The position numbers and the translations under genes are program-made. This document shows, one piece after another, positions 1,892 to 61,064 of a DNA stretch of 64,000 bases. The DNA is from Candidatus Woesearchaeota archaeon. Lineage in GTDB: Archaea > Nanobdellota > Nanobdellia > Woesearchaeales > UBA12501. How positions within the stretch are numbered: position 1 is the stretch's first letter; each line of letters opens with the position of its first letter. Below the pieces are notes generated by a model. The model ran no database searches. It had not been told where the DNA came from and was given only the letters and a program-made list of their open reading frames with translations. The stretch is from contig JAWOBY010000048.1 of NCBI GenBank assembly GCA_046484055.1, positions 4,596 through 68,595 of the forward strand, in the 5' to 3' direction.

Positions 1892-2839
1892 TCACTCCAG
1901 CATTCCTGCGAACCTTTCCGGAGATATCCTGCTTAGCATCCTGTATTGTTGCTGGGTGTTGGAGATGGCTTCTCTTATTTTTCTGATCTGGTCGGTGTGC
2001 TTTGCCTTCTGCATCTCATGCCATATCATCACGCTTATAAGCCTCACCTTGATGAAAGTGAGCATCGCTCTCTTCTCCTCGTCATTCAGTCTTATGATCT
2101 TCTGGTAATGCCTCATGAACAGCCTTATCCTGTCTCTCTTGATGCGCTTATAGCTCATGAACGTGTGCGCGAACAGGACCGCAAGGTCGTGGACAAGGAA
2201 GTCCCTGTGCACATCATCAAAGTCTATGAATGCCTTGAGCCTGTCCTTCTCAACGATAAAATTTATGTAGCCCAGATCGCCGTGTATTATGCTCTTCTTA
2301 AGCCTGCTGTACCTTATGCTTTTGAGCTCTCTCCTCAGCCCGCTGTATTCTCCTTCCACAAAACTGTTGCTGTGCTTTGAGCGCATGTGCGAAACTATCC
2401 TGTTGGCGGGCATCCAGTCCCCTCTGCCTTTGAATCTGAGCTTCCTGAGCTCCCTGTGCATCAGGCCTATATTCCTGGCCAGGCCCATAGTAAGGCCTTC
2501 AGTAAGCCTTTTAGTGTGCCTGCCTTTTATGAATGCATATAATGCGACAGGTTTGCCCTTTAGAGTAAGCAGATCCTTCCCGTTTCCGGAGAGCACGACT
2601 CTCGGAACCCTGATGCCTCTCTTGTGCAGGTATTCCTCAATCTTGAGCATGAATGCCGCGCATCTCATGTTTGAGTTTTCAAATACCTTCACTATGAACT
2701 CTCCCTCTGTTGTCCTGAGCGCGTAATTCGTGTTGCCCAGCGCGTAAGGTATGTGTTTGTGGGACCTGTAACTTCCTATGCTGTAGAGCTGGAGGAGTTC
2801 CCTGAAATCCTTTGCCGAGAATCTTGTCAGGATTGTCAT
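1892..2839 (-). CDS. phosphotransferase-family protein (aminoglycoside/homoserine/choline kinase-like fold)
   Basis: IIHGDLGYINFIV (HGD-x4-N catalytic loop) followed by FIDFDD, which is an APH-type kinase signature. Confidence 0.7.
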   Translation of the reverse strand: MTILTRFSAKDFRELLQLYSIGSYRSHKHIPYALGNTNYALRTTEGEFIVKVFENSNMRCAAFMLKIEEYLHKRGIRVPRVVLSGNGKDLLTLKGKPVALYAFIKGRHTKRLTEGLTMGLARNIGLMHRELRKLRFKGRGDWMPANRIVSHMRSKHSNSFVEGEYSGLRRELKSIRYSRLKKSIIHGDLGYINFIVEKDRLKAFIDFDDVHRDFLVHDLAVLFAHTFMSYKRIKRDRIRLFMRHYQKIIRLNDEEKRAMLTFIKVRLISVMIWHEMQKAKHTDQIRKIREAISNTQQQYRMLSRISPERFAGMLE

Positions 2840-5788: not shown

Positions 5789-6450
5789 TATTCTTGATGG
5801 CTTCAGGGAAAAAAGAAAGTAAGGCAGCAAAGAAAAGCCGTAAGAATGGCCATGGGCCCAAACACAAGGGGGCAGGAGAGGATAAAGGAATGGAAACAGG
5901 AAAAAAGGCATCTGGAAAAGCGGGCAGGAAAGGCGGATTCCGCAGGGGATGGTACTTCCTTGCAGCCTGCATTATCATCTACGCCGCTGTCGTGCTCATG
6001 AAGCCGGAGGCAGGGATGCGGGCACTGAGATTCTTCTCCGATATAATACTGAAGATTCTGCCGGTATTCATACTCATATTCGCCCTGCTCACTCTAATAA
6101 ACTATTTCGTTGAGCCAAAGAAGCTCCTCAAATACTTCGGCAAGGAAAGCGGCTTGAAGGGCTATCTCCTGTCACTCACCGCTGGGATCATATCCACAGG
6201 CCCGATATTCATGTGGTACCCCCTCCTTAACGAGATGCAGGGCCACGGAGTGAGCAACGGTTTCCTTGCGACATTCCTTTACGGCAGGTCGATAAAGCCC
6301 GCGCTGCTTCCATTATTGATATTCTATTTCGGGCTTGCATACACGATAATATTGTGCATGGCGCTGGCATTCGCAGCCATAATACAGGGGATAATCATAA
6401 AGTTCATTGATGAAAAAAATTATGGGTTAAATCGGAGGTGGCATACATGA
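5785..6450 (+). CDS. permease, second half of a two-component membrane permease (K/G-rich N-terminal tail)
   Basis: In-frame ATG at 5785 within ORF 5638-6450, coupled to the upstream stop. It is a multi-pass membrane protein (ILKILPVFILIFALLTLINYF ... GIISTGPIFMWYPLL). Confidence 0.65.
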   Translation: MIFLMASGKKESKAAKKSRKNGHGPKHKGAGEDKGMETGKKASGKAGRKGGFRRGWYFLAACIIIYAAVVLMKPEAGMRALRFFSDIILKILPVFILIFALLTLINYFVEPKKLLKYFGKESGLKGYLLSLTAGIISTGPIFMWYPLLNEMQGHGVSNGFLATFLYGRSIKPALLPLLIFYFGLAYTIILCMALAFAAIIQGIIIKFIDEKNYGLNRRWHT

Positions 6451-6767
6451 GGATTGCAGTAGCAGCGGACAGCGAGAGCGAGGAGTCAAGAGTCAGCGGT
6501 GTGGGAGGAAGAGCGCCTTACTACCTCATATTCGAGGACAAAAAGCTCGTCAAGGCAATGGAGAATCCCCACACGACAGGAGGAGGGGCAGGTGTCAGGA
6601 CCGCAGAGATGCTAAAGGGTGAAGGGGTGGCTCTGGTCATCAGCGGAGAGATAGGGCCCAACATGCAGGCTTCGCTTGACAAGGAAGGGATAAAGACAAG
6701 AAAGATTGAAAATGTTGAAGGGAAGACAGTAAAACAGGCGGTGGAAGAGGCAACAGGGGCTGATTGA
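6447..6767 (+). CDS. NifX/NifB-like dinitrogenase FeMo-cofactor biosynthesis domain protein
   Basis: SD GGAGGTG sits 6 nt before the ATG at 6447. MRIAVAA...VSGVGGRAPYYLIFED...GVALVISGEIGPNMQASLDKEGIK is the typical domain pattern. Confidence 0.8.
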   Translation: MRIAVAADSESEESRVSGVGGRAPYYLIFEDKKLVKAMENPHTTGGGAGVRTAEMLKGEGVALVISGEIGPNMQASLDKEGIKTRKIENVEGKTVKQAVEEATGAD

Positions 6768-8827: not shown

Positions 8828-9505
8828 TCATGCTGTCTGGGCCCTGCCCTCTGCATGAGAATCCTGCCCCTGCACGCCCTCCTTCTTCATGAGAACCTTT
8901 TTTCTCTTGTTGGAATACCTGTGCGCTAGATGCAGCGGCTCGGGAAGCTTGTGGGGGTGGATTATGAACCTCTTGACAAGGTCTTCCGCGGTCCTTACGC
9001 TTATCCTGTGGCCGGGTGATACATAGAGGGGCTTTGCATAATCCCTTGTCTTGACCTCCGCAGCCCGTATCTCCTTGTCCACTTCCACTTTGCCTTCCAT
9101 AACTTTGCCCATCATCAGGTTTTTTGCGATGCCTATGGTTGGTACATCCAGGGCTATGCCCAGCTGGGATGCCATCCCTATCCTTCTCGGGTGCAGTATG
9201 CCGTTCGCATCAACCATGAGCACATCCGGCCTTGTCCTGAGCTTGCTGAACGCCTCTACCACAGCGGGCCCTTCCCTGTAGAACATGTAGCCTGGTATGT
9301 ATGGCATCCTGCATTCAGCCACTTCATGGGCCGAATCAACAATCTTCATGTTCCTGTCCATCACCACAACATATGATATTATCCTGTTGTCATCGGTATA
9401 TGCCTGATCGCAGCCCCCTATGTACTCGATATCCTCAAACATGTCATTTGTTATAACATTCTCCGCGAGTCTCTGCTGCTCTGACTTGAGCTTTAGCTTG
9501 TGCAT
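8828..9505 (-). CDS. nfi: endonuclease V
   Basis: YIGGCDQAY ... RMPYIPGYMFYREGPAVVEAF ... VLMVDANGILHPRRIGMASQLGIALDVPTIGIAK are canonical Nfi motifs. Confidence 0.85.
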   Translation of the reverse strand: MHKLKLKSEQQRLAENVITNDMFEDIEYIGGCDQAYTDDNRIISYVVVMDRNMKIVDSAHEVAECRMPYIPGYMFYREGPAVVEAFSKLRTRPDVLMVDANGILHPRRIGMASQLGIALDVPTIGIAKNLMMGKVMEGKVEVDKEIRAAEVKTRDYAKPLYVSPGHRISVRTAEDLVKRFIIHPHKLPEPLHLAHRYSNKRKKVLMKKEGVQGQDSHAEGRAQTA

Positions 9506-10545
9506 TCTTTGGCACCTCCTCCATTCTCCATCTCAGGGGAATATTCCACCACAATATTCCTATTCTTTGTATTCTTGGCTGCGTAAAGCGCCTTGTCCGC
9601 CCGGCGGTATATTGTATCATATATTTCTCTGGGCCTCATACCTTCAAAGTCTGAGGGATTGAATACTGTATATCCCATGCTTATGGTGATGCTTGTGCTG
9701 TCCTTGCCGGGGGTTTTTCCGTCCGGGGAAGTCATCAGTGAGTAGGTGTCCTTCTCATCAATCTTAGGGTATTCAGGCAGTCTTGTGTCCTCGACATTCT
9801 TCCTCATCCTCTCAACAACATCAAATGCACTTTCCTTTGGGACTCCGTAGAGAAGGAACATGAATTCCTCTCCCCCCATCCTTCCTCCCTGGTTCTCGTA
9901 ATCCCCTCCTCTCTCGCCTATATCCTCATCCCTCAATGAGCTGTTTAGAGATTCTGCCACTCTCTTGAGCGCTTCGTCGCCTGCGGGATAATGGCCATAA
10001 GTATTATTGTATTCCCCGAAATGGTCTATATCACCTATTGCTATAGTGAACTCTTCTCCTGTCCTGAGAGATCTCGCGATCTCCTGCTTTACCCTGTTCA
10101 TGAATGCTTCTCTCTTGTAGAGGCCTGTAAGCCCGTCAAAATTCACAAGATTGTCGACCTCATCTGCAAGCTCATCCCTATTGGTTTCAAGTCTCTTGTG
10201 TTCTTTCTGCATCTCGTTTATCATATTCTTGTAGGTATCTATCTTCTCCCTGATAAGGTTGGGGCTCTTGAGCGCTTCAGTGAAAGGGATTCTCTTGTCA
10301 AGGTCATATGACTGCGGTTTCCCCTCCTCCTTTCTCATCCCCAGCCTCTCGTAGTTCCTGTCAATCATGACCTCATACAATCCTATGGATTCTAGTAATG
10401 AGGTGATCTCTTCTCTCCGCTCAGAATAATAGTCGTAAAGGTCTGAAATCTGCTTAAGTGTCCTGAGATTCTCTTTTTCCCTGTCTGAAAGGCCGGCATT
10501 CGCGATCTCTTCCAGCTGGTTCTTCGGGTCTTCAGGCATTTCCAT
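9493..10545 (-). CDS. GGDEF-domain nucleotide cyclase (diguanylate cyclase-like) with N-terminal coiled coil
   Basis: DIDHFGEYNNTYGHYPAGDEALK ... GGRMGGEEFMFLLYG ... RADKALYAAKNTKNR. The maximal ORF reaches 10635 (GTG). The ATGs at 10545/10539 are preceded by AGGTGA, so I prefer them. The 3' end overlaps the nfi start by 13 nt. Confidence 0.8.
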   Translation of the reverse strand: MEMPEDPKNQLEEIANAGLSDREKENLRTLKQISDLYDYYSERREEITSLLESIGLYEVMIDRNYERLGMRKEEGKPQSYDLDKRIPFTEALKSPNLIREKIDTYKNMINEMQKEHKRLETNRDELADEVDNLVNFDGLTGLYKREAFMNRVKQEIARSLRTGEEFTIAIGDIDHFGEYNNTYGHYPAGDEALKRVAESLNSSLRDEDIGERGGDYENQGGRMGGEEFMFLLYGVPKESAFDVVERMRKNVEDTRLPEYPKIDEKDTYSLMTSPDGKTPGKDSTSITISMGYTVFNPSDFEGMRPREIYDTIYRRADKALYAAKNTKNRNIVVEYSPEMENGGGAKECTS

Positions 10546-10780
10546 TTTCACCTTTTTGGACTGTACTGTGGGTTTTTCATGCGGTCCTTTTCGCAGGCAT
10601 GTTGAACCCTGCACCCCATACAAACTTTTTACCACTGATTAAGAATAACTAATATATAAAGTTTTCTGTTTTTTACCACTTAATAGTTAATATTATTTGG
10701 TGCTGTTGGCAGTCACAACCCATAATTCTGATCCCCTCTTGTTGGTGATGCAGGCTGTCAGGATACAAAAGCCAGAATAA

Positions 10781-11180
10781 TAAAAATTTGACCATTATCT
10801 TGTCAAAACCTAGCGGTTTTTCCCCTTTGTGTTCAACTGAAATCATTTAAACAGTTGAACACAACGTATAAGCAAGCCCTAACCACACCTTAAAAGGTGA
10901 GGTATTAACGGATTTGTACTTTACATGGTCAAATTTTTAGTCTTGAAAATTTCTCCCCTAAGTCGAAATTTTCAATAAGCTTTATTTGGGGTAATGCCTT
11001 TATAATGCCTCCAGAGAAGGTCAGGAGCGTCTGCAGTGGGTTGTGCTGGAGGATTAGGAAGGCCCCCCGTGGAAAGGATTTGTTGGGGGTGGTTGAGAAA
11101 ACAGAACCAATCAGGGGGGCCTTTGAAAATGAATATTCTGCCATTGCAGGACATTCGGTCTTGCATGGCATTGTTTTTTT
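10781..11180 (+). ncRNA. candidate structured non-coding RNA (family unknown)
   Basis: The region has no convincing ORF.
- A 15-bp long-range helix (10781-10795 / 10925-10939) encloses hairpins at 10827-10864 (13 bp) and 10805-10820 (6 bp).
- An 11-bp hairpin sits at 10943-10975.
- A 7-bp helix pairs 11008-11014 with 11046-11052.
- A 10-bp GC helix pairs 11059-11068 with 11114-11123.
- A terminal hairpin at 11140-11169 is followed by T7.
- Two G-U pairs are valid only on the + strand. Confidence 0.35.
11140..11180 (+). terminator. hairpin plus T7 run (terminator-like)
   Basis: GCCATTGCAGGAC attcg GTCTTGCATGGC forms 12 bp with one bulged T and one G-U pair. It is followed by attgTTTTTTT. Further T runs lie downstream (11201-11208). 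Confidence 0.45.
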
Positions 11181-11250
11181 GGGTTTCTAAAGGTCCTGTT
11201 CTTTTTTTTGTGGCTTTTCTGTGCTGATTTTGCGCTTTTACGGCCTTTTC

Positions 11251-22030: not shown

Positions 22031-23212
22031 ATGAAACGACTGATGGCTGTATTCGTCGCTGCGCTTATGCTTTTAAGCGTATTTCCGGTGGCATTCGCGC
22101 AGGACGAGGGGAACAATGTGTCTGAAAACATGACAGACATGGATGAAGGCACAGAGACAGACGAGACCGCAGACCAGGAAGATGATACGGATGAAGAGGA
22201 TGAGTCTGATGAAGAGACAGAAGAGGAAACTGATGAAGATGAATTAGACGAGGACGATTCTGACGGAGAGACAGATGAAGAAGCGGAAGACGAATCAGAT
22301 GAAGAGCTTGAAGGTGAGGAAGATCTGGATGAGTCTGCAGAAGGAAACGAGACCTCAGAGGAGGATGAAGAGAAAGCAGAAGACGAAGCAGGAATCACCC
22401 CTGACAATGGATTCATGTGGGGGCTTGAGAGAGCCATGGAGAGGATAAGCCTCGCTCTTACGTTTGACAAGTCTGAGAAAGCAAAGAAAGGGCTTTCCCA
22501 TGCGAAGGAGAGGCTTGCTGAAGTACAGACCATGATCCAGGAGAATAAGTTTGAAGACGCCGAGAAGGCAAAGGAGCAGCACGGCAAAGCGCTCGGCAAG
22601 GTAAAGCAGGCGGTGGAAGGCATTGACGGCGAGTCAGAGCCCGAAGAACAGCTTGAGGATCAGGTCGAGATAGAGGGCGAGCTTGAGGACCAGGAGCAGG
22701 AGATGGAGAAAATAGGAGAGAGAGCCCGGAAAATGCTGAACCTCACTGAAGACCAGCAGCAGAGGATACAGAACATGGTAGAAGAGCTCAAGCAGGGGGT
22801 TTCAGAGACCAAGGCAAAAGCCAAGGCCAAGGGAAACAAGGTCAAGATAGCTGTCCAGGCCAAGACAGGAAAATCTGCTGAAGAGGTAGATGATCTTGTC
22901 GAGGATATGAAGGAAGCCAGGAAGGAAAGGATTCAACAGATGAAAGAGAAAGCCAAGGAAGCCAGGGAGAAGGCGAAAGAGATGAGGGAAGAGAGAAAGG
23001 AAGAAGCGAAAGGGATGGCCGAGGACAGAAAAAAAGCTCCCGGAAGGATGAGAGAATCCGCTGAAGAAGATGAGGCAGAGAACGAGACTCTGGAGGAGGA
23101 TGAGCCCTCTGAGGGGGATAACTCCTCAGAATCCGGCGAAACTGACGAGGATGGAGTGGATATCGGCGGCGCAGTAGGCATAGGGAAACCCAAGAGCAAA
23201 GCGGGTGAATGA
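22031..23212 (+). CDS. secreted acidic protein with DUF5667-like helical domain
   Basis: SD AAGGAGGT. Signal peptide MKRLMAVFVAALMLLSVFPVAFA. A ~100-aa D/E-rich stretch. PDNGFMWGLERAMERISLALTFDKSEKAKKGLSHAKERLAE resembles DUF5667. Confidence 0.6.
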   Translation: MKRLMAVFVAALMLLSVFPVAFAQDEGNNVSENMTDMDEGTETDETADQEDDTDEEDESDEETEEETDEDELDEDDSDGETDEEAEDESDEELEGEEDLDESAEGNETSEEDEEKAEDEAGITPDNGFMWGLERAMERISLALTFDKSEKAKKGLSHAKERLAEVQTMIQENKFEDAEKAKEQHGKALGKVKQAVEGIDGESEPEEQLEDQVEIEGELEDQEQEMEKIGERARKMLNLTEDQQQRIQNMVEELKQGVSETKAKAKAKGNKVKIAVQAKTGKSAEEVDDLVEDMKEARKERIQQMKEKAKEAREKAKEMREERKEEAKGMAEDRKKAPGRMRESAEEDEAENETLEEDEPSEGDNSSESGETDEDGVDIGGAVGIGKPKSKAGE

Positions 23213-28480: not shown

Positions 28481-29956
28481 ATGGCAGGGAAAGAAAAACA
28501 AGGGGAACAGGAAAAGCCAGGCGATGAAGAGCGGGGGAAGCAATGGCCTGTGTGTTTTTCTGAGCAGATGATAATCGGCAGCAGGGAAAGCAATGTGAGC
28601 ATAATAACACTATGGACGCAGAAAGAGCCAATAGCAGAAAAACTGGACAGGGAGAGCTATGCGACGATAGGCCAGCTATACTCCAAGGCGGGAATCAATG
28701 CAGTGCTGCGCAATGTTCTTGCGAACCCATCCATAAGATATATCATTGTCTGCGGCGCTGACAAGTCCGGAAGCGGTGAAGCGCTGTTGAGTCTTGCAAT
28801 GAACGGAATTGATGATAACCACAATATCTCAGGTGTTGAGAACGCGCACATAGAGAAAGAGATTCCCGCAGAAGCGGTGGAGGAATTCCGACGTAATGTT
28901 GAGGTCATTGACATGAGGGGGGTAACTGATCCTGCAGGGATCAGTCGCAGGATAAACAGCCTTGAGAGCAGAGGGCCATTTGCAGAGCCCAAGTTCTTTC
29001 CTGCGGCGAAGCCTGACCTTCCTGAAAGATACCCCACAGACCCCTCAGTCTTCAAGGTGCGCGCCGGCACGATAGGCATCGCATGGCTGACCGTCCTGAG
29101 CAAGATAATGAAGTTCGGCCATAACAAGAGGAGCCATCACAGCTCAGGCCAGAAGGAGCTCCTGAATATTGTGGCAGTGATAACAGGAGAGGATCCCGAA
29201 AACATAGCATGGTATGAATTCTTCAACTTCACAAGGAAAGAGCTGGAGGAGTATTACCCTCAGGTTCTGACTTCCAGGAGCATAAAAGGCATAAATTACA
29301 CGTACGGCCAGCGCCTGATGGATTACAACGGCATTGACCAGATAAAGAGCGTGATAGAAAAGCTGAAGAAAGAGCCTTTCACCAGGAGAGCGATAGCAGT
29401 CACATGGGAGGCTGACAAGGATGTGTATAACAAGAACGCGCCCTGCCTCGACCTTGTCAATTTCATAGTGCAGGACAACAAGCTTTTCATGAACGCATAT
29501 TTCAGGAGCCATGACATGTACAGGGGGTGGCCGCAGAACTGCTTCGCCCTGAGAAAGCTCCAGAAGCACGTTTCGGATGAGACAGGCATCCCTATGGGTG
29601 ACATGACAATATTCAGCGCTTCAGCGCACATATATGAAGAGAACATCAATGAGGTCCAGGAGATCATTGACATGTATTATGAAGGGCCTGAGCATGAATG
29701 GGACCCAAGAGGGAATATGGTGATAGGCATTGACAGGGAGAACATGGAGATTGTCATATCCCATCAAAGCCATGACGGCCGGAAACTCGAAGAATTAAGG
29801 GGCAGCAGTGTGAAGGAGCTGGCGGGAAAGCTTGAGAAGCACCATACGATATCCCAGACAGCGCATGCGCTTGATATAGGATCGGAACTCCAAAAAGCGT
29901 ATATTGCGATGAGAAACGGCCTTGAATACGTGCAGGATAACGATATCAAGATTTGA
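28481..29956 (+). CDS. thyA: thymidylate synthase (ThyA family) fused to an N-terminal MtrA-like domain
   Basis: C-terminal half: RRAIAVTWE, NAPCLDLVNFIVQDNKL (catalytic Cys), FRSHDMYRGWPQN, SAHIYEEN. N-terminal half: AVLRNVLANPSIRYIIVCGADKSGSGEAL resembles the methyltransferase subunit A-like fold. Confidence 0.75.
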   Translation: MAGKEKQGEQEKPGDEERGKQWPVCFSEQMIIGSRESNVSIITLWTQKEPIAEKLDRESYATIGQLYSKAGINAVLRNVLANPSIRYIIVCGADKSGSGEALLSLAMNGIDDNHNISGVENAHIEKEIPAEAVEEFRRNVEVIDMRGVTDPAGISRRINSLESRGPFAEPKFFPAAKPDLPERYPTDPSVFKVRAGTIGIAWLTVLSKIMKFGHNKRSHHSSGQKELLNIVAVITGEDPENIAWYEFFNFTRKELEEYYPQVLTSRSIKGINYTYGQRLMDYNGIDQIKSVIEKLKKEPFTRRAIAVTWEADKDVYNKNAPCLDLVNFIVQDNKLFMNAYFRSHDMYRGWPQNCFALRKLQKHVSDETGIPMGDMTIFSASAHIYEENINEVQEIIDMYYEGPEHEWDPRGNMVIGIDRENMEIVISHQSHDGRKLEELRGSSVKELAGKLEKHHTISQTAHALDIGSELQKAYIAMRNGLEYVQDNDIKI

Positions 29957-32512: not shown

Positions 32513-33070
32513 TCAATCCTTTCGGCCTTTCTTTTCCTGGGCGCGTTTCTTGAACGTCCTGTCTCCATTGTAGGTCCCTACAGCGATAACCTCATCACCG
32601 GGCATCATCTTTGTGTCCTTATCGATGTTGAATATCCATGAATCCTTCCTCTTTATGCCTATGATGGTGGCGCCGGTGTCTGTCCTTATTGCGTTCTCTC
32701 CTATGGTCTTTTTGGCGTAGGGGGATCCTGCGGAGATCTTGGCTGTTATGACCTTCTCGTTGCTTTCCCTGAATATGTCCTTTATTATGTCCGGCCTTTT
32801 CCCTTCTGAAAGTTCCGCGATGTGGAGGGAAGCGTTGGCCATGTCTTTTATTGAGTCGAGGAGGTCCACTATGAACATCCTCTCGTCCTCCGGCTCTTTC
32901 ACCCTGAAGAGCATCTTCAGGGTGCTTTCCTCAAGCATGGATACTTCCTTGTGCATCTCTTTCACCTTGTCCGCTATCTCCCTGTCCCTGAGAAATACAG
33001 CAGAGTAAGCGAGATCCTGCATCAGTTCTGTAAGGTCTTTCATCCTCAGAAGATTCTCTTTTATGTTCAT
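32513..33070 (-). CDS. PhoU-like helical domain + TrkA-C (RCK_C) regulatory protein
   Basis: The N-terminus has PhoU/DUF47-like helices. The C-terminus is KKTIGENAIRTDTGATIIGIKRKD...MMPGDEVIAVGT (TrkA-C). It is the first gene of the MgtE-like operon. Confidence 0.65.
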   Translation of the reverse strand: MNIKENLLRMKDLTELMQDLAYSAVFLRDREIADKVKEMHKEVSMLEESTLKMLFRVKEPEDERMFIVDLLDSIKDMANASLHIAELSEGKRPDIIKDIFRESNEKVITAKISAGSPYAKKTIGENAIRTDTGATIIGIKRKDSWIFNIDKDTKMMPGDEVIAVGTYNGDRTFKKRAQEKKGRKD

Positions 33071-38099: not shown

Positions 38100-38686
38100 A
38101 GGGACTGCCTGTCAATATAGAGAGAGGAGAAGGAGTGAGATTCCCTTCAGAGCACGGCGAATTCACCCTCATCCCCTACATTGAGAGGCTCAGCGAAAGA
38201 TGCCACCTCGCGCTTGTCATGGGACAGCAGGTAGACAATGCTTTAGTCAGGATACACTCTGAATGCCTGACAGGAGATACGCTATGCTCTTCAAGGTGCG
38301 ACTGCGGCAGCCAGTTGAGAAAGGCAATGGAGATGGTAGGCAAGGAGGGTTCAGGAGTCATAATATATCTGAGGCAGGAGGGAAGGGGCATCGGACTGTG
38401 GAACAAGCTCAAGGCATACGCGCTGCAGGACCGCGGTTTGGATACTGTGGAGGCCAACCACCAGCTGGGCTTCAGGGATGATGAGAGAAGTTATGAGATA
38501 GCAGTTCATATACTGAAGGACCTCGGCCTGAAAAGGATAAGGTTATTGACGAACAATCCTGACAAGATAAAGGGCCTTAACGGAAGCATTGAGGTTGCTG
38601 AGAGGATACCCCTTACAGTAAGGCCGAACAGGCACAATGAGGCCTATCTCAGGGCAAAGAAAGAGAGGATGGGGCATGAGGTTTAG
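38096..38686 (+). CDS. ribA: GTP cyclohydrolase II
   Basis: VRIHSECLTGDTLCSSRCDCGSQL, YLRQEGRGIGLWNKLKAY and DTVEAN are present. The start overlaps the ribD stop (ATGA). Confidence 0.85.
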   Translation: MKGLPVNIERGEGVRFPSEHGEFTLIPYIERLSERCHLALVMGQQVDNALVRIHSECLTGDTLCSSRCDCGSQLRKAMEMVGKEGSGVIIYLRQEGRGIGLWNKLKAYALQDRGLDTVEANHQLGFRDDERSYEIAVHILKDLGLKRIRLLTNNPDKIKGLNGSIEVAERIPLTVRPNRHNEAYLRAKKERMGHEV

Positions 38687-38721: not shown

Positions 38722-39135
38722 ATGGGAATCACTCCAAAAGTAATAGCTGTTTTCGGCACCTTCGACACAATCCACAAGGGCCATCTTCATTTCTTCAGGC
38801 AGGCCAGGGATGCAGCAGGTCAGGATTCAAGACTGGTTGTTGTCATCGCCCGCGATTCCAATGTTGAGAAAGAGAAAGGAAAGGCCCCAAAACACAATGA
38901 AAAGGAAAGACTGGCCAAGGTGAAAGAGCTTGACATTGTTGATGACGCAGTTCTGGGCTCTCAGGTTATTGACTTCAGCATAATAGATGAGATAAGGCCT
39001 GACATCATAGCGCTGGGGTATGATCAGAAGAAGCCCGAGGGATTTGATGCTCATATAAAAGACAAGGATGTAGAGGTTGTAAGGCTGAAGCCTCACATGC
39101 CTGAGGAGTTCAAGAGTTCTAAGATGAAAAAGTAG
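38722..39135 (+). CDS. ribL: cytidylyltransferase-fold nucleotidyltransferase, probably archaeal FAD synthetase
   Basis: VFGTFDTIHKGHLHFF (the GxFDxxHxGH motif). About 137 aa. It is the last gene of the riboflavin operon. Confidence 0.65.
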   Translation: MGITPKVIAVFGTFDTIHKGHLHFFRQARDAAGQDSRLVVVIARDSNVEKEKGKAPKHNEKERLAKVKELDIVDDAVLGSQVIDFSIIDEIRPDIIALGYDQKKPEGFDAHIKDKDVEVVRLKPHMPEEFKSSKMKK

Positions 39136-39150
39136 GTATATTATTTCCAC

Positions 39151-39239
39151 AAAGCCGAAAACTGAAACATTTATGTAGCGAAAATCAGGGATTTTCTGGG
39201 TTTGTTAGACAAGCTAACAAACTTTCAGATGAAGGCTTT
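39151..39239. other. structured module M1
   Basis: The outer helix pairs AAAGCC 39151-56 with GGCTTT 39234-39, and CTGAAA 39162-67 with TTTCAG 39223-28. It encloses hairpin GAAAATC-agg-GATTTTC (39180-96) and hairpin TTTGTTAG-acaag-CTAACAAA (39201-21). Confidence 0.5.
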
Positions 39240-39249
39240 TGGAAAGCTT

Positions 39250-39427
39250 AAAAATCCGCTGTCAATACAATCGCCGTCAAACTGAAACAACAGAAAATAT
39301 TTCATATTTTCTTAGTTCCAAAACCTTCGGTTTTGAAACCTCATAAAAATGCAAAGCATTTTTAGGACGCCAAAAATCTATGATTTTTGAGCGTTTAGGT
39401 TTCAGTCAGGCGATTGTGCGGATTTTT
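39250..39427. other. structured module M2
   Basis: The composite outer helix has three segments:
- 10 bp: 39250-59 / 39418-27.
- 9 bp: 39267-75 / 39409-17.
- 8 bp: 39281-88 / 39399-406.
It encloses four perfect hairpins with 3-nt loops:
- 39292-312 (9 bp).
- 39319-35 (7 bp).
- 39345-63 (8 bp).
- 39371-89 (8 bp). Confidence 0.55.
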
Positions 39428-39449
39428 TTGATTTTATCTCTCTTATTCA

Positions 39450-39571
39450 GGCAGCAACAACAATGGATTCATACACGGTCAAAGCCTTCGGCTTTGCCCT
39501 ATTCGTAAAGGAAAAAACCACACTGCGTATGGTTTTTTCCTCTACACTCAGTATTCATCCTTGTTGCTGCC
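39450..39571. other. structured module M3
   Basis: The outer helix is 11 bp (39450-60 / 39561-71), then 4+4 bp (39465-74 / 39551-60). It encloses CAAAGCC-ttc-GGCTTTG (39480-96) and an 11-bp hairpin GGAAAAAACCA / TGGTTTTTTCC (39510-40). Confidence 0.5.
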
Positions 39572-39576
39572 AACGG

Positions 39577-39730
39577 GGCGGTGATGATGGCGCTGGCGAG
39601 GCGGGGGATGGTTGCCGAGCGTAGTGAGCGCAACTAAGGAAATCTCTGATTTCCTGTTCCCCCCTACGGGGTGGCGAGTAGGGCTCCGAACATAGTGAGG
39701 AGACCGTCAGCCGCCATAATCATCACCGCC
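39577..39730. other. structured GC-rich module M4
   Basis: The outer helix is 12 bp (39577-88 / 39719-30), then 4 bp (39589-92 / 39712-15), then 5 bp including one G-U (39593-97 / 39706-10). Inside are hairpin AGGAAATC-tct-GATTTCCT (39637-55) and two paralogous hairpins (39611-34 and 39682-705) with 11-nt loops GAGCGTAGTGA and GAACATAGTGA. Confidence 0.5.
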
Positions 39731-39800
39731 AAAAACATTAAGAAATAATTACAGACCAATGTTGTTGCTGCCTGCAAAAGACTATTAGAGAACTACTTAT

Positions 39801-41648
39801 TCAATAAAGTTCATTCACCATCTCAATATACATGGCATTTGACCACGCCTGCATGAGGCATCCCTTGCTCTGCATCTCACTGCTGGAGCTTATCTCAGCA
39901 TGATGGCCTACCGCCCCTCCGAAAAGTATCTCTTGAGTGCTGGCCCTTAGTATCCTGTCTATCTCTTCCCTGAACTTCCTCTTGTTGAGCCTGTGCATGC
40001 ATATCGCTGCGAGGTTGTTGAGCCAGTACCATGAATCACCGCGATGATAACTCCGGTCATTCTCTCCAGTGTGCGCACCGAAAAAGAGCGGATTCTCCTT
40101 GTCTATTGTTGATATTCCCCCCCACTCATTCCAGAGCTTCGGAAGGACTGTCCTGAAGCATTTTATCCACTGCTGTTTCGTCAGCAGTTCGGGATAGACA
40201 TAGTATGCGATGAACACATTTGGCCTTATTGTATCGTCATTCGCTCCGTCCTTGAGGTATTTTCCGTTCCAGAATGTCTCCCTGACTTTCTTCATGAGGT
40301 CATTCTCGAGATGCACTGCCATGTTATGGCCTATATCATCATTGAGTGTCCTGCAAAGGAGTTTCATGAGCCGGTACATGCAGAGCCTCAGTGCCTGTAT
40401 CTCGATCCTTATCCCCTCCCTGTCATCATCCTTGTAGGCGGTGTCCATCCAGGTCTCCAGCCTGCCGTTCACCGCGAAATCCTGCGCGGTGTGGTTGTTC
40501 CTCAGCTCATAGACCGTGTCCTCCACTTTCTTCTTCATGAACTCCAGATCCTCCTCAGAGAGGTATTCTGTTATCAGCTCTTTCCTGTAGAGCTCCTCAA
40601 AGAAGTCGTAGCATCGCTTCATCAGCCAGCCTATGGCATCAGCAGAGTCGAGATCAGAGCCTGGATATCTGTTGGGTATCCTTCCGTCATCCCTTATCTG
40701 TCTCAGCTGCCTGAAAAGTATCTCTTTCACTAAGTCATATTTCTCCTGGATCATCAGCGCTTTCAGGCTCACAGCCTCATCCCTTGTCCAGTACTGGAAG
40801 AACCACCACAGGCCTGCGTAGATCCCTTTCTTGTCCCTTATGGTGCTGACCAGATGGTCCAGTGATGAGCAGGCGGCCCTGTATGCCATGGTCGCCTTCG
40901 GGTCGTCGAACCCCCTGTTGAACTTCACATATGCCTGCTGCTTCTCCTTGACCTTCTTCAGGTCCTTTATCAGCTTATCGTTCTCTTTTATCGCTTTCTG
41001 CTTGTTCTTTGAGAATGATATGACCATGCGCCTGGCCCTTATCACTATTGCATTGTACACATGCCTCTCCCATGGCCAGGAGCCTCGTTCCTTGTCAAAA
41101 GGATATTGTACAGGAGAGAACTCATCTTTCTTACTGCACTCCTTGCCGTTGTCTATGACCACATAGACTATGTATTCCTTCTTCCCGTGGCTCTGGTCCT
41201 CCTGCTTGTCTGTCTTCTTGGTGAACTCAACTATTATCTTTCCTTTCTCGTTGTAGATCCTGTAATACCTGCCGAACTGCCTGCTGTCATACGCCTTCCT
41301 GACATCAAGGTCTATCTGTATATCAGCCTCCCTGCTCAGCTGATAGCCGATGGAGTTATGCATCAGCGGCATGAAAAGCGTTTCTTTCAGGCCGTCATCG
41401 CGCTCCCTCTCGATACAATAGAACCTGTTGATCATTCTCTTAACATCCCCTGAACTGAGAGGTGTTATGTTCTCCACCACCTTGAACATCTCGAAGTTGT
41501 CATTGAAGAATGCGCCCTGGTATCTTGAGGCAGGGAAATCGCTCAGGGAGAAGTAGCCGCCTATCTTGTTGGTCAGGATGAAGCTGGGGTTATGAGCCTT
41601 TCCTTCCACTTTTGACTTATCAATCTCATGGATAACATCAGTCATCAA
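39801..41648 (-). CDS. glycogen debranching enzyme (amylo-alpha-1,6-glucosidase, archaeal GDE type)
   Basis: GIYAGLWWFFQYWTRDEAVSLKAL. The C-terminal (alpha/alpha)6-barrel-like region has SYHRGDSWYWLNN and the CLMQAWS motif. Confidence 0.8.
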   Translation of the reverse strand: MMTDVIHEIDKSKVEGKAHNPSFILTNKIGGYFSLSDFPASRYQGAFFNDNFEMFKVVENITPLSSGDVKRMINRFYCIERERDDGLKETLFMPLMHNSIGYQLSREADIQIDLDVRKAYDSRQFGRYYRIYNEKGKIIVEFTKKTDKQEDQSHGKKEYIVYVVIDNGKECSKKDEFSPVQYPFDKERGSWPWERHVYNAIVIRARRMVISFSKNKQKAIKENDKLIKDLKKVKEKQQAYVKFNRGFDDPKATMAYRAACSSLDHLVSTIRDKKGIYAGLWWFFQYWTRDEAVSLKALMIQEKYDLVKEILFRQLRQIRDDGRIPNRYPGSDLDSADAIGWLMKRCYDFFEELYRKELITEYLSEEDLEFMKKKVEDTVYELRNNHTAQDFAVNGRLETWMDTAYKDDDREGIRIEIQALRLCMYRLMKLLCRTLNDDIGHNMAVHLENDLMKKVRETFWNGKYLKDGANDDTIRPNVFIAYYVYPELLTKQQWIKCFRTVLPKLWNEWGGISTIDKENPLFFGAHTGENDRSYHRGDSWYWLNNLAAICMHRLNKRKFREEIDRILRASTQEILFGGAVGHHAEISSSSEMQSKGCLMQAWSNAMYIEMVNELY

Positions 41649-57965: not shown

Positions 57966-58874
57966 ATGAGGAGAAAACTCGTGAAACAGGGCAGGAATGC
58001 TTTGACTGTTACTCTGCCTACAGCATGGCTTGAGAAGAATAATCTCATGTCTGGCAGCGAAGTTTTTCTGGAGGAGAGAGATCATGGGCTTTTGGTATCA
58101 GGCAGAGAATCCGCTGGCGGTAACAAAAAAGATGTTAGCATAAAAGGAATGGACCCCATGATAAAAAGGATACTTGGAGCAATATACAAAGCAGGCTATG
58201 ATGAAGTGGATGTGACCTTCGATACAGCTAAAGAGCTTGAAACGGCGCAGGAAGTCATCAGAGAGGAGTTCATAGGTTTCGAGGTAACACAGCATGGCAA
58301 GCATACCCTTAACGTGAAGAAGGTCTCTTCTATTGATATAGAAGAATTCAATACCATGATAAGAAGGATGTTCCTCATAATCAAGTCAATGGCTGATGAC
58401 AGCTTAGATGCAATCAATAATGATGATCCAGATTTTATGAGGATGATTATACTCCGCGACAAGGATGTAAATAAAATAGCCGATTTCTGCAGGAGAGCGC
58501 TAAATACCTCGGGCCACCTTATAGAAGGCAGAACACCTCCATTGTACTTTATATCAGAGCAGCTTGAGAAGATAGGGGATAATTACCGTGACTTATGCAA
58601 GTTTATGATAAAAAAGAGGATAAAACCATCTAAAGAGGTCATGGGCTTTTTTTCAGAAGTGAACAGTTTCTTTGAGATGTTTTACGAGCTCTATTTCAAT
58701 TTCAGCCTTAAGAAGATGGCTGAGTTCGGAAAGAGAAGATATGAGCTAGTCGATGAATCAGAGAAGATGATTGGCTTCGCATCAAAAAATGAGTTGATGT
58801 TCCTTTTCTATATGAAAGAGGTAATCGAGAACACCTTCGACATGAATGGTCCTCTCATGGCTGCTAAACTATAA
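57966..58874 (+). CDS. AbrB/SpoVT-domain + PhoU-like regulator (archaeal phosphate-uptake-regulator type)
   Basis: N-terminal KLVKQGRNALTVTLPTAWLEKNNLMSGSEVFLEE is the AbrB swapped-hairpin. The C-terminus has two PhoU-like helical repeats. Confidence 0.75.
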   Translation: MRRKLVKQGRNALTVTLPTAWLEKNNLMSGSEVFLEERDHGLLVSGRESAGGNKKDVSIKGMDPMIKRILGAIYKAGYDEVDVTFDTAKELETAQEVIREEFIGFEVTQHGKHTLNVKKVSSIDIEEFNTMIRRMFLIIKSMADDSLDAINNDDPDFMRMIILRDKDVNKIADFCRRALNTSGHLIEGRTPPLYFISEQLEKIGDNYRDLCKFMIKKRIKPSKEVMGFFSEVNSFFEMFYELYFNFSLKKMAEFGKRRYELVDESEKMIGFASKNELMFLFYMKEVIENTFDMNGPLMAAKL

Positions 58875-61064
58875 CATTCTACCGATAGACGAGAGGGGGG
58901 TGACCATCTCTTCTATATCTTTTCCGCCTTCAGGTCCGATATACTTCTCATAGAGACTCATATCTTCCAGGATGCTCATTGTCCACCCAATAGCCTTATC
59001 AACATGGAATCTTCTGGCTTTCTCAGCCCACTCAGCTGTCTCTCCTCTTTCTTTTGAAACAGTTAAATCCCTGCTTCTGTATCCTGCCATCTCCATATGC
59101 CTCTGGACAGCACCAAATGGTAGGAAAGGATTTAACAAACTGTAATCATCTCCCCAATATAACTCTTTTATCTCCTCCTTCTGCTCTTCATCAAGGTATT
59201 CACTGCTGAACTCACAAAGATTAACAAAAAAATAGAAAGGAGGCATCATCTCATCATTCTCAAAGTCAATCTTTCTCACTCTGCGGTCTTTCATAAAATT
59301 CATGAGATTGCTGTCTGTGTATGCTTTTTTTGGGAGCGGTGTGATTGTGCGTCCGATAACATCCATCCCTCTCTCAACAGACATTCTCTCTCCATCGCTT
59401 ATCAGGGTTCCGCTCCTTTGGATGAACTCAAGCGATTGACTGGATTTGTCTTTAAAGTAATTTCCAGGGAAGTTTATACAGTCTTCAAGTCTTATACTTC
59501 CATCCCTGTAAGAATCCATCATCCTGTCCTCTATATCCCTGAGGAGCACAACTGCGCTTTTCAACTCCTCAAAAAACCCATCTTCTCCTTCATGAATCAT
59601 CTGGTGGAGGTTTTTTCCCTCTATATATCTTAAGAATATATGATAATGGCCGTCTGAAGTCAGGTCACAAAGGAAATCAGAAATCCTGTCGCCAAAATAA
59701 GGCTTCAATGCTCTTATCTGCTCTTTTTCTACTCTGAGCCTCTTCTCCTGCATGTTCCTCTTTATGGCCACCAGGTTCTGTATGTACTTGTCAAACTTAT
59801 GCAATAACAACTCATTCCGGAATTCACCTGCGATACTGAAATCCTCTACTGATTTTCCCTCCAGAAGAATGGCCCCGCCCTCCGTGTATTTCTTTTCAGC
59901 CTCTTCGTCCCTTCCAGTATGTTCCAGCATCTCACCATGAAGGAAGAATGGTTTTGGGTCATCTTCACAACGCTCCTCAGCATCTTCCATGGCCTGGAAA
60001 GCCATATGCCTGCTTGGAAGGCGCCAGTGCAGTGCTGCAAGACTATAATAATTTGATTGGTCAATAGGATTCTTCCTGATTTCTTTCTTAATCTTTTTAT
60101 ATTCCATGATATGGGGGTTTACTATAAACCTTAATCTATCAAGAAATTTTTTTATCTGTGTTTCATCTCCTTTGATATTGATTCCTTTTGAATAAGCCCT
60201 CAGAACCCAATCCATCTTTTCATTTTTTGCGTAAATATCTCCCAAATCAAAAGCCAAATCTCGCTTAGGATTTATTTTTAATTTATTCTCCAAGATATCT
60301 TCTGCTCTTTTGTAATCTTTTTTCCAGTAAAGATAACTCACTTTTATCTTTTCCCTTGATTCTTCTTTGTATTTGGGGTTTAAGAATAAGTCTGCAAACT
60401 TAACTGAAAAAAGAGTCGCAATATAAATTCCTGCCGTCCCTAATATCATTATTGGAAGGTAGTTTTTGGTATTGTACTCCAGTGTTGCCTCTACTTTTTT
60501 TGTTAATTCGATATAAAAATCAACTCCCATATCTTCAATAGCTTTTTCCTTAAAACCATCATCAAAATGAAGAAGTTTAAAAGGTTTATAATAGTCTTCA
60601 TAAAACTCTTTAATAAGATTAGTGTACAAGAATTTGGATGTGATTAACAATGAAGTTGATTTTGGATGTTTTAGTAACCAGAGCAAAGGGTTTTTTGTTT
60701 TTTTGTAAACATTTGAACTGGGTTCAGTTTCTTCTAGTTTCTCGCCATTTTCTTCAATCAACTTGTCAACACTTCTATGATTCTTATCTTCAGCTTTGTA
60801 AAGGAAGCGATGCATAATATTGTCTAAAACTCTGTAGGATACAAAACCAAGAGCGATTGAGTTAAGGAGATTTAGATAAAACGGGCTTTCAAAAACTTTA
60901 TCACTCCAATCATTAATGAATGTTGCATTCTTAAAAAATATTTCATAACTTATTAATGTGGTCCCAGCGCCTAGTATCTTTGGAATCGTTTCCCTTATCC
61001 TATCCTCTAAATCTTTCTCCTTTGCCTTCTCTTTCACTTTTCCTAACAGTCTGCGTACCCCCAT
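58869..61064 (-). CDS. large membrane-associated protein: N-terminal TM/helical region, TPR-like middle, C-terminal atypical kinase-like domain
   Basis: 731-aa ORF. The hinge-like segment is HYHIFLRYIEGKNLHQMI. The catalytic-loop-like segment is YTDSNLMNFM (D-x4-N), followed by KIDFE. The 5' half of the gene (about 60100-61060) is visibly more AT-rich. Confidence 0.55.
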   Translation of the reverse strand: MGVRRLLGKVKEKAKEKDLEDRIRETIPKILGAGTTLISYEIFFKNATFINDWSDKVFESPFYLNLLNSIALGFVSYRVLDNIMHRFLYKAEDKNHRSVDKLIEENGEKLEETEPSSNVYKKTKNPLLWLLKHPKSTSLLITSKFLYTNLIKEFYEDYYKPFKLLHFDDGFKEKAIEDMGVDFYIELTKKVEATLEYNTKNYLPIMILGTAGIYIATLFSVKFADLFLNPKYKEESREKIKVSYLYWKKDYKRAEDILENKLKINPKRDLAFDLGDIYAKNEKMDWVLRAYSKGINIKGDETQIKKFLDRLRFIVNPHIMEYKKIKKEIRKNPIDQSNYYSLAALHWRLPSRHMAFQAMEDAEERCEDDPKPFFLHGEMLEHTGRDEEAEKKYTEGGAILLEGKSVEDFSIAGEFRNELLLHKFDKYIQNLVAIKRNMQEKRLRVEKEQIRALKPYFGDRISDFLCDLTSDGHYHIFLRYIEGKNLHQMIHEGEDGFFEELKSAVVLLRDIEDRMMDSYRDGSIRLEDCINFPGNYFKDKSSQSLEFIQRSGTLISDGERMSVERGMDVIGRTITPLPKKAYTDSNLMNFMKDRRVRKIDFENDEMMPPFYFFVNLCEFSSEYLDEEQKEEIKELYWGDDYSLLNPFLPFGAVQRHMEMAGYRSRDLTVSKERGETAEWAEKARRFHVDKAIGWTMSILEDMSLYEKYIGPEGGKDIEEMVTPLSSIGRML

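Follow-up and report, generated by a model that had tools for sequence, protein, structure and literature searches.

Repetitive extragenic palindromes (REPs) of bacteria are the closest described counterparts of the locus considered here, a 665-bp gap at positions 39136-39800 of a 64,000-nt stretch of DNA from a Candidatus Woesearchaeota archaeon (contig JAWOBY010000048.1, positions 4,596 to 68,595; the whole stretch is hereafter called the window), which lies between ribL and a convergent gene for a debranching enzyme (GDE). According to Di Nocera et al. 2013 (PMC3733652), REPs form two super-families, tagged with GTAG or CGTC, and have stems of 6-13 bp, loops that are either 2-3 nt long or complex, G-T pairs, and conserved mismatches; inverted dimers form larger hairpins, large clusters occasionally occur at a few loci, and gaps between convergent or unidirectional open reading frames (ORFs) are favored. 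REPs of the GTAG type are extragenic stem-loops of 20-40 nt in which one end carries an unpaired, conserved GTAG or a near variant of it. The text of the same paper describes the CGTC-tagged super-family, which includes dRS3 of Neisseria and RPE-4 and RPE-6 of Rickettsia, as having a CGTC or TGTC tag, stems that open with two A-T pairs, a short CCA-like tail, and no known dedicated transposase. From archaea, only IS200-type Y1 transposases have been reported, the classes of REP-associated tyrosine transposases (RAYTs) coming from bacteria only (PMC6006769), and our literature search returned no archaeal report of RAYTs or of REPINs (REP doublets forming hairpins). We consider the gap to be, on balance, probably a nest of small palindromic repeats resembling REPs, REPINs, and bacterial interspersed mosaic elements (BIMEs), present in both orientations, and not a single large RNA gene. 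The main interest of this reading is that archaea have so far yielded no report of repeats of this kind.

Fold strength of the gap

The whole gap folds with a minimum free energy (MFE) of -247.2 (plus strand) and -250.7 kcal/mol (minus strand), compared with approximately -165 kcal/mol for shuffled sequences (z -9.4 to -16), and 11 other gaps in the window have z between -2.4 and +1.5. One further stretch with a negative score, 22835-23030 (z -4.2/-2.8), lies inside ORF 22031-23212 and is not a gap. An earlier note, made from the sequence alone, had described the interval between ribL and the debranching-enzyme gene as ORF-free, hyper-structured, and enriched in hairpins, and each of these points stands: there is no ORF of at least 60 aa in what is the longest gap of the 64-kb window, the flanking genes are those that had been named, z is about -10 to -16 on both strands, and the locus, which makes up 1% of the window, holds 5 of its 17 perfect hairpins with a stem of at least 8 bp and 7 of its 11 perfect triloop hairpins with a stem of at least 7 bp. 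The division into four modules is reproduced at nearly the same positions, with helices of 6+6 bp (M1), 27 bp (M2), and 12 bp (M4) and 19-nt arms (M3). Its statement that no RNA family could be recognized agrees with Rfam, which gave zero families at the gathering threshold over all 64,000 nt of the window and, in an E-value scan of the locus, no match better than E = 1.2.

In the MFE structure of each strand, only 9 of approximately 225 pairs (4%) are G-U, helices are near-perfect across the gap, and loops are mostly 3 nt. Equal folding of both strands together with few G-U pairs and 3-nt loops is the signature of DNA palindromes. M1 has no strand preference (-32.1 kcal/mol on the plus and -30.1 on the minus strand; z -5.0 and -5.2), and M2 folds at -68.2 (plus) and -71.7 kcal/mol (minus; z -8.9 and -9.7). 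M3 prefers the minus strand (-64.5 vs -52.8 kcal/mol), and M4 prefers the plus strand (-77.1 vs -64.6, i.e. 12.5 kcal/mol), an opposition that agrees with how the GTAG tags, GNA triloops, and GA loops described below are oriented. The leading idea of the earlier note, that the whole of 39150-39775 is a single large multi-domain non-coding RNA (ncRNA) of an undescribed class, would fit the extreme z-scores, the modular domains closed by long-range helices, and the lack of coding potential, but we regard it as very unlikely: both strands are equally stable with 4% G-U pairs, strand preference is reversed between the neighboring modules M3 and M4, the long-range helices are accounted for by inverted repeat-unit copies, there is no Rfam match, and the element is not present in the syntenic gap of the nearest relative (L001), where the sequence is unrelated. 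For three of these reasons, namely Rfam, the L001 gap, and the flip in strand preference, a dedicated ncRNA gene was also rejected as a class. As between the "large ncRNA or hairpin-array element" of the earlier note, the hairpin array is favored by the repeat-unit evidence and the single large ncRNA is not supported. More generally, an extreme folding z-score between convergent genes can stem from inverted repeat units rather than an RNA gene, and a module-by-module comparison of strand preference quickly reveals the repeat origin of such folds.

The repeat unit, its relatives, and its possible origin

M3 and M4 together form a composite palindromic element made of oppositely oriented and tandem copies of a ~60-nt unit, with a layout consisting of a GTAG tag, a hairpin with a G.A mismatch, CCGTC..GCCGCCA, and a tail (Table 1). 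Units A and P, on the plus strand, are faced by two minus-strand units, Q and the 20-bp hairpin that carries a GTAG tag. Units P (39657-39791, plus strand) and Q (39505-39420, minus strand) both carry CGARTAGGG ... CCAWTGTTGTTGCTGCCTG.A.AAGA, and because this common flank lies in inverted orientation, there is a long-range inverted repeat of 26 nt (39441-39466/39756-39781, 88%), additional to the module helices, which encloses M3 and M4. The GTAG lies 0-3 nt 5' of the stem in unit P, in the hairpin at 39504-39546 (minus strand), in both copies (a and b) at L023, a locus from related Woesearchaeota, and in L024, another such locus; it has degenerated to ATAG in unit Q and is lost in unit A. In every well-preserved unit, as read from the sequences, two purines are mismatched at one and the same position close to the base of the stem. 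A simple 11-bp target-site duplication (TTGTTGCTGCC) around M4 was considered and set aside, as the three copies remain similar beyond the 11-mer on the inner side.

The unit is also found in related Woesearchaeota. Window positions 39660-39718 match L023 at 2322-2383 on the minus strand (81% identity, E 7e-10) and at 2436-2478 on the plus strand (84%, E 9e-9), and the core of L023 is therefore an inverted pair of one ~62-nt unit, CCCCYNCGGGGTGGCGA-GTAG-GGC[stem-GA loop-stem]GACC-GTC(C)AGCCGCCA, with 2322-2383 (minus) facing 2436-2500 (plus). An nhmmer search with the unit found the window (unit P, 1e-15), the two copies in L023, and L024, at E 1e-15 to 5e-11. Both L023 and L005/L024, also from related Woesearchaeota, have a GC-rich structured core in a gap upstream of NMD3 (361 bp in L023; 497 bp in L005/L024, with z -5.4 and -3.95), and a 17-mer of the unit P arm (39756-39791) has 94% identity to L005/L024. 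Across ~57 kb of related Woesearchaeota DNA, unit elements occur only in L023 and L024. Searches among viruses and plasmids gave no further members: blastn of the locus against phages and plasmids returned no match, a pattern scan of viral contigs with the M4 termini returned 0, a scan with the conserved blocks returned only chance matches in GC-rich coding DNA, and a scan with a GTAG plus GA-loop pattern returned one conserved phage locus without a hairpin and one chance match.

The similarity of these cores also bears on a narrower RNA hypothesis, in which M4 alone (39577-39730, plus strand) would be a structured RNA gene of ~155 nt with two tandem-G.A protein-binding hairpins and with the GC-rich cores of L023 and L005/L024 as its homologues, and the surrounding AT-rich hairpins would be terminators or debris. 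M4 is indeed a GC-rich island whose plus strand is favored by 12.5 kcal/mol and has ~5 G-U pairs that exist on that strand only; its 3' domain is kept in two relatives with compensatory stem changes (CTCC/GGAG vs AAAACC/GGTTTT, and GACACAGC/GCTATGTC), a T-run follows the core in L023 and L024, and the GA-loop hairpin covaries strongly. We nevertheless judge this hypothesis, in both of its parts, to be improbable, as the homologous unit occurs on both strands within the L023 element and antisense in M3 of the window, the cores lie at different loci in each genome with the orthologous sites empty in L026, L027, and L001, M4 lacks a T-run downstream on the plus strand, and there is no Rfam family. 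C/D-box small RNA, k-turn, hammerhead, tRNA-minihelix, signal recognition particle RNA, and RNase P were compared with M4 by eye and discarded, their spacing or core motifs being a misfit and Rfam being silent.

A filled site and empty sites can be compared among the relatives. L023, L026, and L027 share the gene order TFIIS-like, a 219-221-aa gene (minus strand), and NMD3 (plus strand). L026 and L027 have an empty site, a gap of 93-97 nt upstream of NMD3 that ends ...AAATCAAAAA|G[AC]TATATAAA; L023 shows these flanks with an additional 267 bp (2291-2557) separating TCAAAA from TCAAAAA. The contrast of filled and empty sites is evidence of mobility. A promoter-like element, AATCAAAAA-[GC][AT]TATATAAA, is present upstream of NMD3 and GDE at L023 2545-2570, L024 2336-2360 and 1949-1967, and L020 122-140, the GDE cases being those in L020 and L024; in L023, the junction of the inserted repeat element falls on it.

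Only one relative, L001 (Woesearchaeota CG10), retains the GDE-ribL synteny of the window's own site; its GDE is 74% and its RibL 53% identical. The earlier note had named absence from related genomes as a result that would speak against an RNA gene, and the 324-bp gap of L001 is indeed unrelated in sequence, lacks the element, and is unstructured (z +1.0 and +0.4), which argues against one large RNA. The gap after GDE is 27 bp in L004 and 108 bp in L019, both with a different downstream gene; L019 was discarded as a syntenic comparison because that gene is not ribL. No target duplication is evident at 39420/39800 of the window, and no parent insertion sequence (IS) was found. L004 (GCA_042576465.1, JBHPEW010000114.1) is labeled "candidate division KSB1 bacterium," as is the NMD3-related protein P0126; the GDE of L004 is 73% identical to the Woesearchaeota protein, and its label is likely the result of mis-binning.

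The loop of the unit has relatives beyond the archaea compared here. Two hairpins in M4 have different stems and one loop, CGARCRTAGTGAG (repeat D4), and a pattern scan of a metagenome collection for two CGARCRTAGTGAG-type loops 50-75 nt apart matched 13 contigs, with ~0.01 estimated by chance. The 13 contigs carry the motif stem-C-GA-RC-GNA-GY-GA-G-stem, which combines a tandem G.A pair with a 2-bp mini-stem and a GNA triloop. Stems vary freely and the loop is kept: among 21 distinct sequences, stem covariation is 0.597, compared with 0.198 in shuffles (0 of 500 reach the observed value) and a maximum of 0.153 in a control with the 3' partners slid. A covariance model from the GA-loop set recovers the held-out hairpin of unit A (39610-39635, GGTTGC-CGAGCGTAGTGAG-CGCAACT) at 15.7 bits, the third best score in the window. 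The metagenome contigs (L006-L018, e.g. L011 at 6260-6660 and 400-640) contain intergenic clusters composed of YGTC-AT-NCC-GA-RC-GNA-GY-GA-GGN-AT-CYC hairpins in tandem arrays with a period of 32-100 nt, in both orientations and nested, as illustrated by a hairpin within a hairpin loop in L011, GTCATTCC-GA-GG[TGTCC-TGA-GC-GAA-GC-GAG-GGACG]CC-GA-GGAATC. Judged by the text of the published description, these hairpins look like CGTC-tagged REPs with a tandem-GA loop, and the C-GA-RC-GNA-GY-GA-G loop module belongs to a widespread hairpin repeat. Rfam returned nothing relevant for the relatives and the metagenome hairpins, and a literature string search for the hairpin sequences returned unrelated primers only.

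Other hairpins in the window were recorded alongside these. The ORF-poor stretch 10636-11250 contains, at 10946-10972 (minus strand), the hairpin AAAATTTC-GA-CT-TAG-GG-GA-GAAATTTT, with the tandem-GA layout of the M4 hairpins; its 23.6 bits arise by construction, as it is in the training set of the covariance model. The same stretch has an 11-bp hairpin, GTGTTCAACTG...CAGTTGAACAC, and 10636-10928 is mildly structured (z ~ -2.4). A weak match to the GA-hairpin model at 38618-38648 (plus strand; GUAAGGCCGAA[9]UGAGGCCUAUC, 14.6 bits, E 0.11) lies in the GTP cyclohydrolase II gene and is probably due to chance. A perfect 11-bp triloop hairpin, CACCCTGAAGA-GCA-TCTTCAGGGTG, is present at 32900-32924 in a PhoU/TrkA-C coding region.

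M1 and M2 are nested AT-rich triloop hairpins of two small families that, within the 64 kb, have multiplied only here. All three window matches to AAATC-N3-GATTT (39182, 39374, 39640; 0.13 expected) and both matches to AAARCC-N3-GGYTTT (39320, 39481; 0.03 expected) are in the locus, and the outer helix of M1 is a split third copy of the latter family. This outer hairpin belongs to a TTCCAAARCC-N3-GGYTTTGGAA family, with an insert of ~70 nt (39160-39230) in the position of the triloop; the insert has GAA..GAA flanks and the closing pair CTGAAA/TTTCAG and contains hairpins at 39180-39196 and 39199-39223. The closing helix of M2 has tiers at 39250-59/39418-27, 39267-75/39409-17, and 39281-88/39399-406, and its interior holds four AT-rich triloop hairpins (39292-39312, 39314-39340, 39344-39364, and 39365-39396). 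The M1 and M2 inserts start with one common 11-mer, AAACTGAAACA (repeat D5). Reading CAAARCC-TTC-GGYTTTG as a cUUCGg tetraloop was rejected, as it would break the stem register.

The confinement of the two AT-rich families and of the AAACTGAAACA and TTGTTGCTGCC repeats to the locus, within 64 kb, is what would be expected if the palindromes had been made on the spot, by replication template switching or inverted duplication that began with an ancestral terminator hairpin, with no mobile element, and had been kept as an insulator, the array terminating transcription in both directions and blocking 3' exonucleases for two convergent operons. In line with such an origin, the arms 39448-39466 and 39553-39571 appear to be local copies of 39756-39774 (the copy common to L005), A5/T5 runs flank many of the hairpins on both strands, and the gap after GDE in L019, where the downstream gene is not ribL, has a single nested hairpin, AAAGCCGC[..]GCGGCTTT. 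We hold this combined scenario to be unlikely, given that the GC-rich unit is common to other loci, other genomes, and the insertion/empty-site pair, that a scan for bacterial-type intrinsic terminators (GC-rich stem plus T-tract) found none in the gap (one in the GDE coding region, with 1.2 expected), and that convergent genes elsewhere in the window are separated by short, unstructured gaps.

The ends of M1 also form a TTTCCA...TGGAAA dyad, which resembles origin recognition box (ORB) elements, and cumulative GC skew peaks near 39 kb, where gene orientation switches. A replication site (an origin bearing ORB-like dyads, or a terminus or dif-like site) could produce this combination, but it is extremely improbable here: the skew only tracks local gene orientation and fluctuates over the whole window, no repeated ORB-like box occurs outside the hairpin stems, and the Pfam searches, which covered window ORFs of ~100 aa or longer, detected no Orc1/Cdc6 or Xer gene.

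Returning to the nest of palindromic repeats, several observations weigh against it. There is no copy of the modules, the unit, or the hairpin families in the remaining 63 kb of the window, and the Pfam-searched ORFs include no Y1/HUH (His-hydrophobic-His; Y1_Tnp) or other transposase and no integrase. The ends of the L023 insertion and the length of its duplication are ambiguous, the latter because the target is an A-rich promoter element resembling a B recognition element (BRE) and TATA box. As M1 and M2 have no homologue in any relative or metagenome locus compared, their membership in a mobile family is argued from form only. Finally, strand-specific motifs and covarying stems fit an RNA-level function equally well. 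Classical REPs are dispersed, with tens to hundreds of copies, and the cognate RAYT of GTAG-tagged REPs is encoded by one single-copy gene with repeats at its flanks; if the source genome is ~1 Mb, as we assume, the 64-kb window is ~6% of it. The earlier note had proposed that many dispersed copies with target-site duplications would reclassify the locus as a repeat, and this is borne out in part, in that the unit occurs in relatives and in an insertion flanked by direct repeats, and in part not, as the window has no further copy.

If the locus is such a nest, the units would act as single-strand DNA hairpins that an HUH/Y1-type enzyme copies or moves, as RAYTs do with REPs, or they may have spread by an alternative route of inverted duplication or template switching. 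They would pile up in the convergent gap between the riboflavin and glycogen operons because insertions there are harmless, and once in place they would be tolerated; when transcribed from either gene, they may be hairpin barriers, terminators, or insulators. A bolder proposal, which we put forward tentatively and consider doubtful, is that the GTAG-hairpin unit with its tandem-GA mini-loop represents the first REPIN-like single-strand-hairpin mobile system in archaea (DPANN), with a recognition module common to bacterial CGTC-type repeats. If true, this would imply that archaea have an unrecognized HUH/Y1 (or other) enzyme that mobilizes the units, or that transfer across domains took place between bacteria and these episymbionts, and hairpin-in-loop nesting would reflect insertion targeted to extruded hairpin loops.

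Features of the gap and of the window

The coordinates of the features are collected in Table 1. The arms that close M3 are a 19-nt pair with 84% complementarity, and R1 is an alternative pairing partner of 39450-39468. The minus-strand segment at 39420-39466 supplies the left arm of the 26-nt long-range helix, and the tail of unit Q, ...GATAAAATCAAAAAAAT on the same strand, resembles the right end of the L023 insertion. In the body of unit Q, which contains the hairpin 39480-39496, the GA mini-loop has shrunk to a GAA triloop. The three G-U pairs of the 20-bp hairpin exist on the minus strand only. In M4, the closing helix is a perfect 12 bp that extends to ~22 bp with bulges, and the GA-loop hairpin of unit P is at 39680-39706.

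Table 1. Positions (window coordinates) and composition of the features in the ribL/GDE gap
Feature	Position	Strand	Description
Whole hyper-structured ORF-free gap	39136..39800	no strand	between ribL (+) and GDE gene (-)
M1	39144..39245	no strand	outer hairpin TTTCCA-C-AAAGCC ... GGCTTT-TGGAAA, 6+6-bp helix
M2	39250..39427	no strand	three-tier closing helix, 10+9+8 = 27 bp
AT-rich tail and arm of long unit Q	39420..39466	-	minus strand = CCATTGTTGTTGCTGCCTGAATAAGAGAGATAAAATCAAAAAAAT
Body of unit Q, degenerate antisense copy	39475..39505	-	CGAATAGGGC-AAAGCC-GAA-GGCTTT-GACCGT
20-bp hairpin	39504..39546	-	TGTAG-AGGAAAAAACCATAC-GCA-GTGTGGTTTTTTCCT-TTACG; GTAG tag, GNA triloop
R1, third partial arm copy	39553..39571	+	..TTGTTGCTGCC; closes M3
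M4, GC-rich module (~60% G+C)	39577..39730	+	closing helix GGCGGTGATGAT/ATCATCACCGCC
Unit A, diverged tandem copy of unit P	39588..39636	+	TGGCGAGGCGGGG...; direct repeats D4, D8
AT-rich hairpin	39637..39655	no strand	AGGAAATC-TCT-GATTTCCT; AAATC-N3-GATTT family, inside GC-rich M4
Unit P, best-preserved copy	39657..39717	+	CCCCTACGGGGTGGCGA-GTAG-GGCTCC-GAACATAGTGA-GGAGACC-GTCAGCCGCCA
Window-specific segment, ~40 nt	39718..39755	+	not in L005/L024 homologue; 3' arm of M4 helix and A5 run
Arm and tail of unit P	39756..39791	+	CCAATGTTGTTGCTGCCTGCAAAAGACTATTAGAGA; right arm of 26-nt long-range helix

Upstream of the gap, ribL (38722-39135, plus strand; Pfam CTP_transf_like/FAD_syn) closes a riboflavin operon with two 6,7-dimethyl-8-ribityllumazine (DMRL) synthase genes, ribD, and a GTP cyclohydrolase II gene. 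On the other side, the amylo-1,6-glucosidase gene (39801-41648, minus strand; Pfam GDE_C), convergent with ribL, closes a glycogen cluster with GalT-like, glycogen synthase, GT4, and GH57 genes. A tRNA/tmRNA search found none in the window. Among other window genes, 9493-10635 (minus strand) encodes a 380-aa protein with a GGDEF diguanylate-cyclase domain (E 7e-28), a domain that is unusual in archaeal genomes and especially in DPANN. The 491-aa ORF at 28481-29956 (plus strand) combines MtrA-like, thymidylate synthase, and pterin-binding DUF4346 domains. The segment 60001-61000 has a G+C of 0.32, compared with a window mean of 0.48, and lies in a 731-aa ORF (58869-61064, minus strand) without a Pfam match.

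Comparison with known systems

Among structured RNAs, OLE, GOLLD, ROOL, and HEARO are like the locus in size, in multi-hairpin domains, and in very low folding energy, whereas the locus lacks strand specificity over its whole length, has few G-U pairs, is not syntenically conserved, and has no Rfam match. A clustered regularly interspaced short palindromic repeat (CRISPR) array was rejected, as the direct repeats of the locus, 9-17 nt long, occur in only two copies each and are irregularly spaced. Miniature inverted-repeat transposable elements (MITEs), including nested MITEs and the archaeal MITEs and palindrome-associated transposable elements (PATEs) from IS200/IS605, share with it a non-coding length of 270-380 bp, imperfect inverted ends (39441-66/39756-81), and the filled/empty site with a flanking direct repeat in a relative (L023). 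They differ in that no parent IS is identified here, the L023 target duplication is ambiguous, and the element consists of repeated hairpin units and not a deleted transposon.

The two REP super-families offer closer parallels. Compared with the textual description of CGTC-tagged REPs, the metagenome GA-loop hairpins are alike in their YGTC-AT-NCC...GGN-AT-CYC form, and the archaeal unit likewise ends in ..CCGTC..GCCGCCA with a CCA-like tail; it differs in that its hairpin has CGTC on the 3' side and GTAG on the 5' side, and in that GG opens the stems. The GA-loop module common to both domains may provide a starting point for defining what recognizes CGTC repeats, for which a transposase is not known.

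Small, dense DPANN genomes are expected to purge repeat DNA of this kind, and a GTAG-tagged, dimer-forming unit with an insertion polymorphism would extend REP/REPIN-type repeats, which have been regarded as a bacterial specialty, to DPANN. With GTAG REPs, REPINs, and BIMEs (PMC3733652; Bertels and Rainey, PMC3116915), the window has in common short extragenic palindromes that carry GTAG on the 5' side of a 6-13-bp stem, conserved mismatches and G-T pairs within the stems, loops that are 2-3 nt or complex, inverted dimers, tandem or mixed clusters, and a location in a convergent-ORF gap. The differences are that the host is a DPANN archaeon, that there is one cluster in 64 kb with no RAYT seen there, and that the unit is longer (~60 nt plus a tail), has a tandem-GA mini-loop, and shows heavy nesting of hairpins. 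Structurally, the archaeal unit qualifies as a GTAG REP and as a REPIN-like dimer, and what is new, to a moderate degree, is the archaeal host and a GA-loop module that is common to bacterial repeats.

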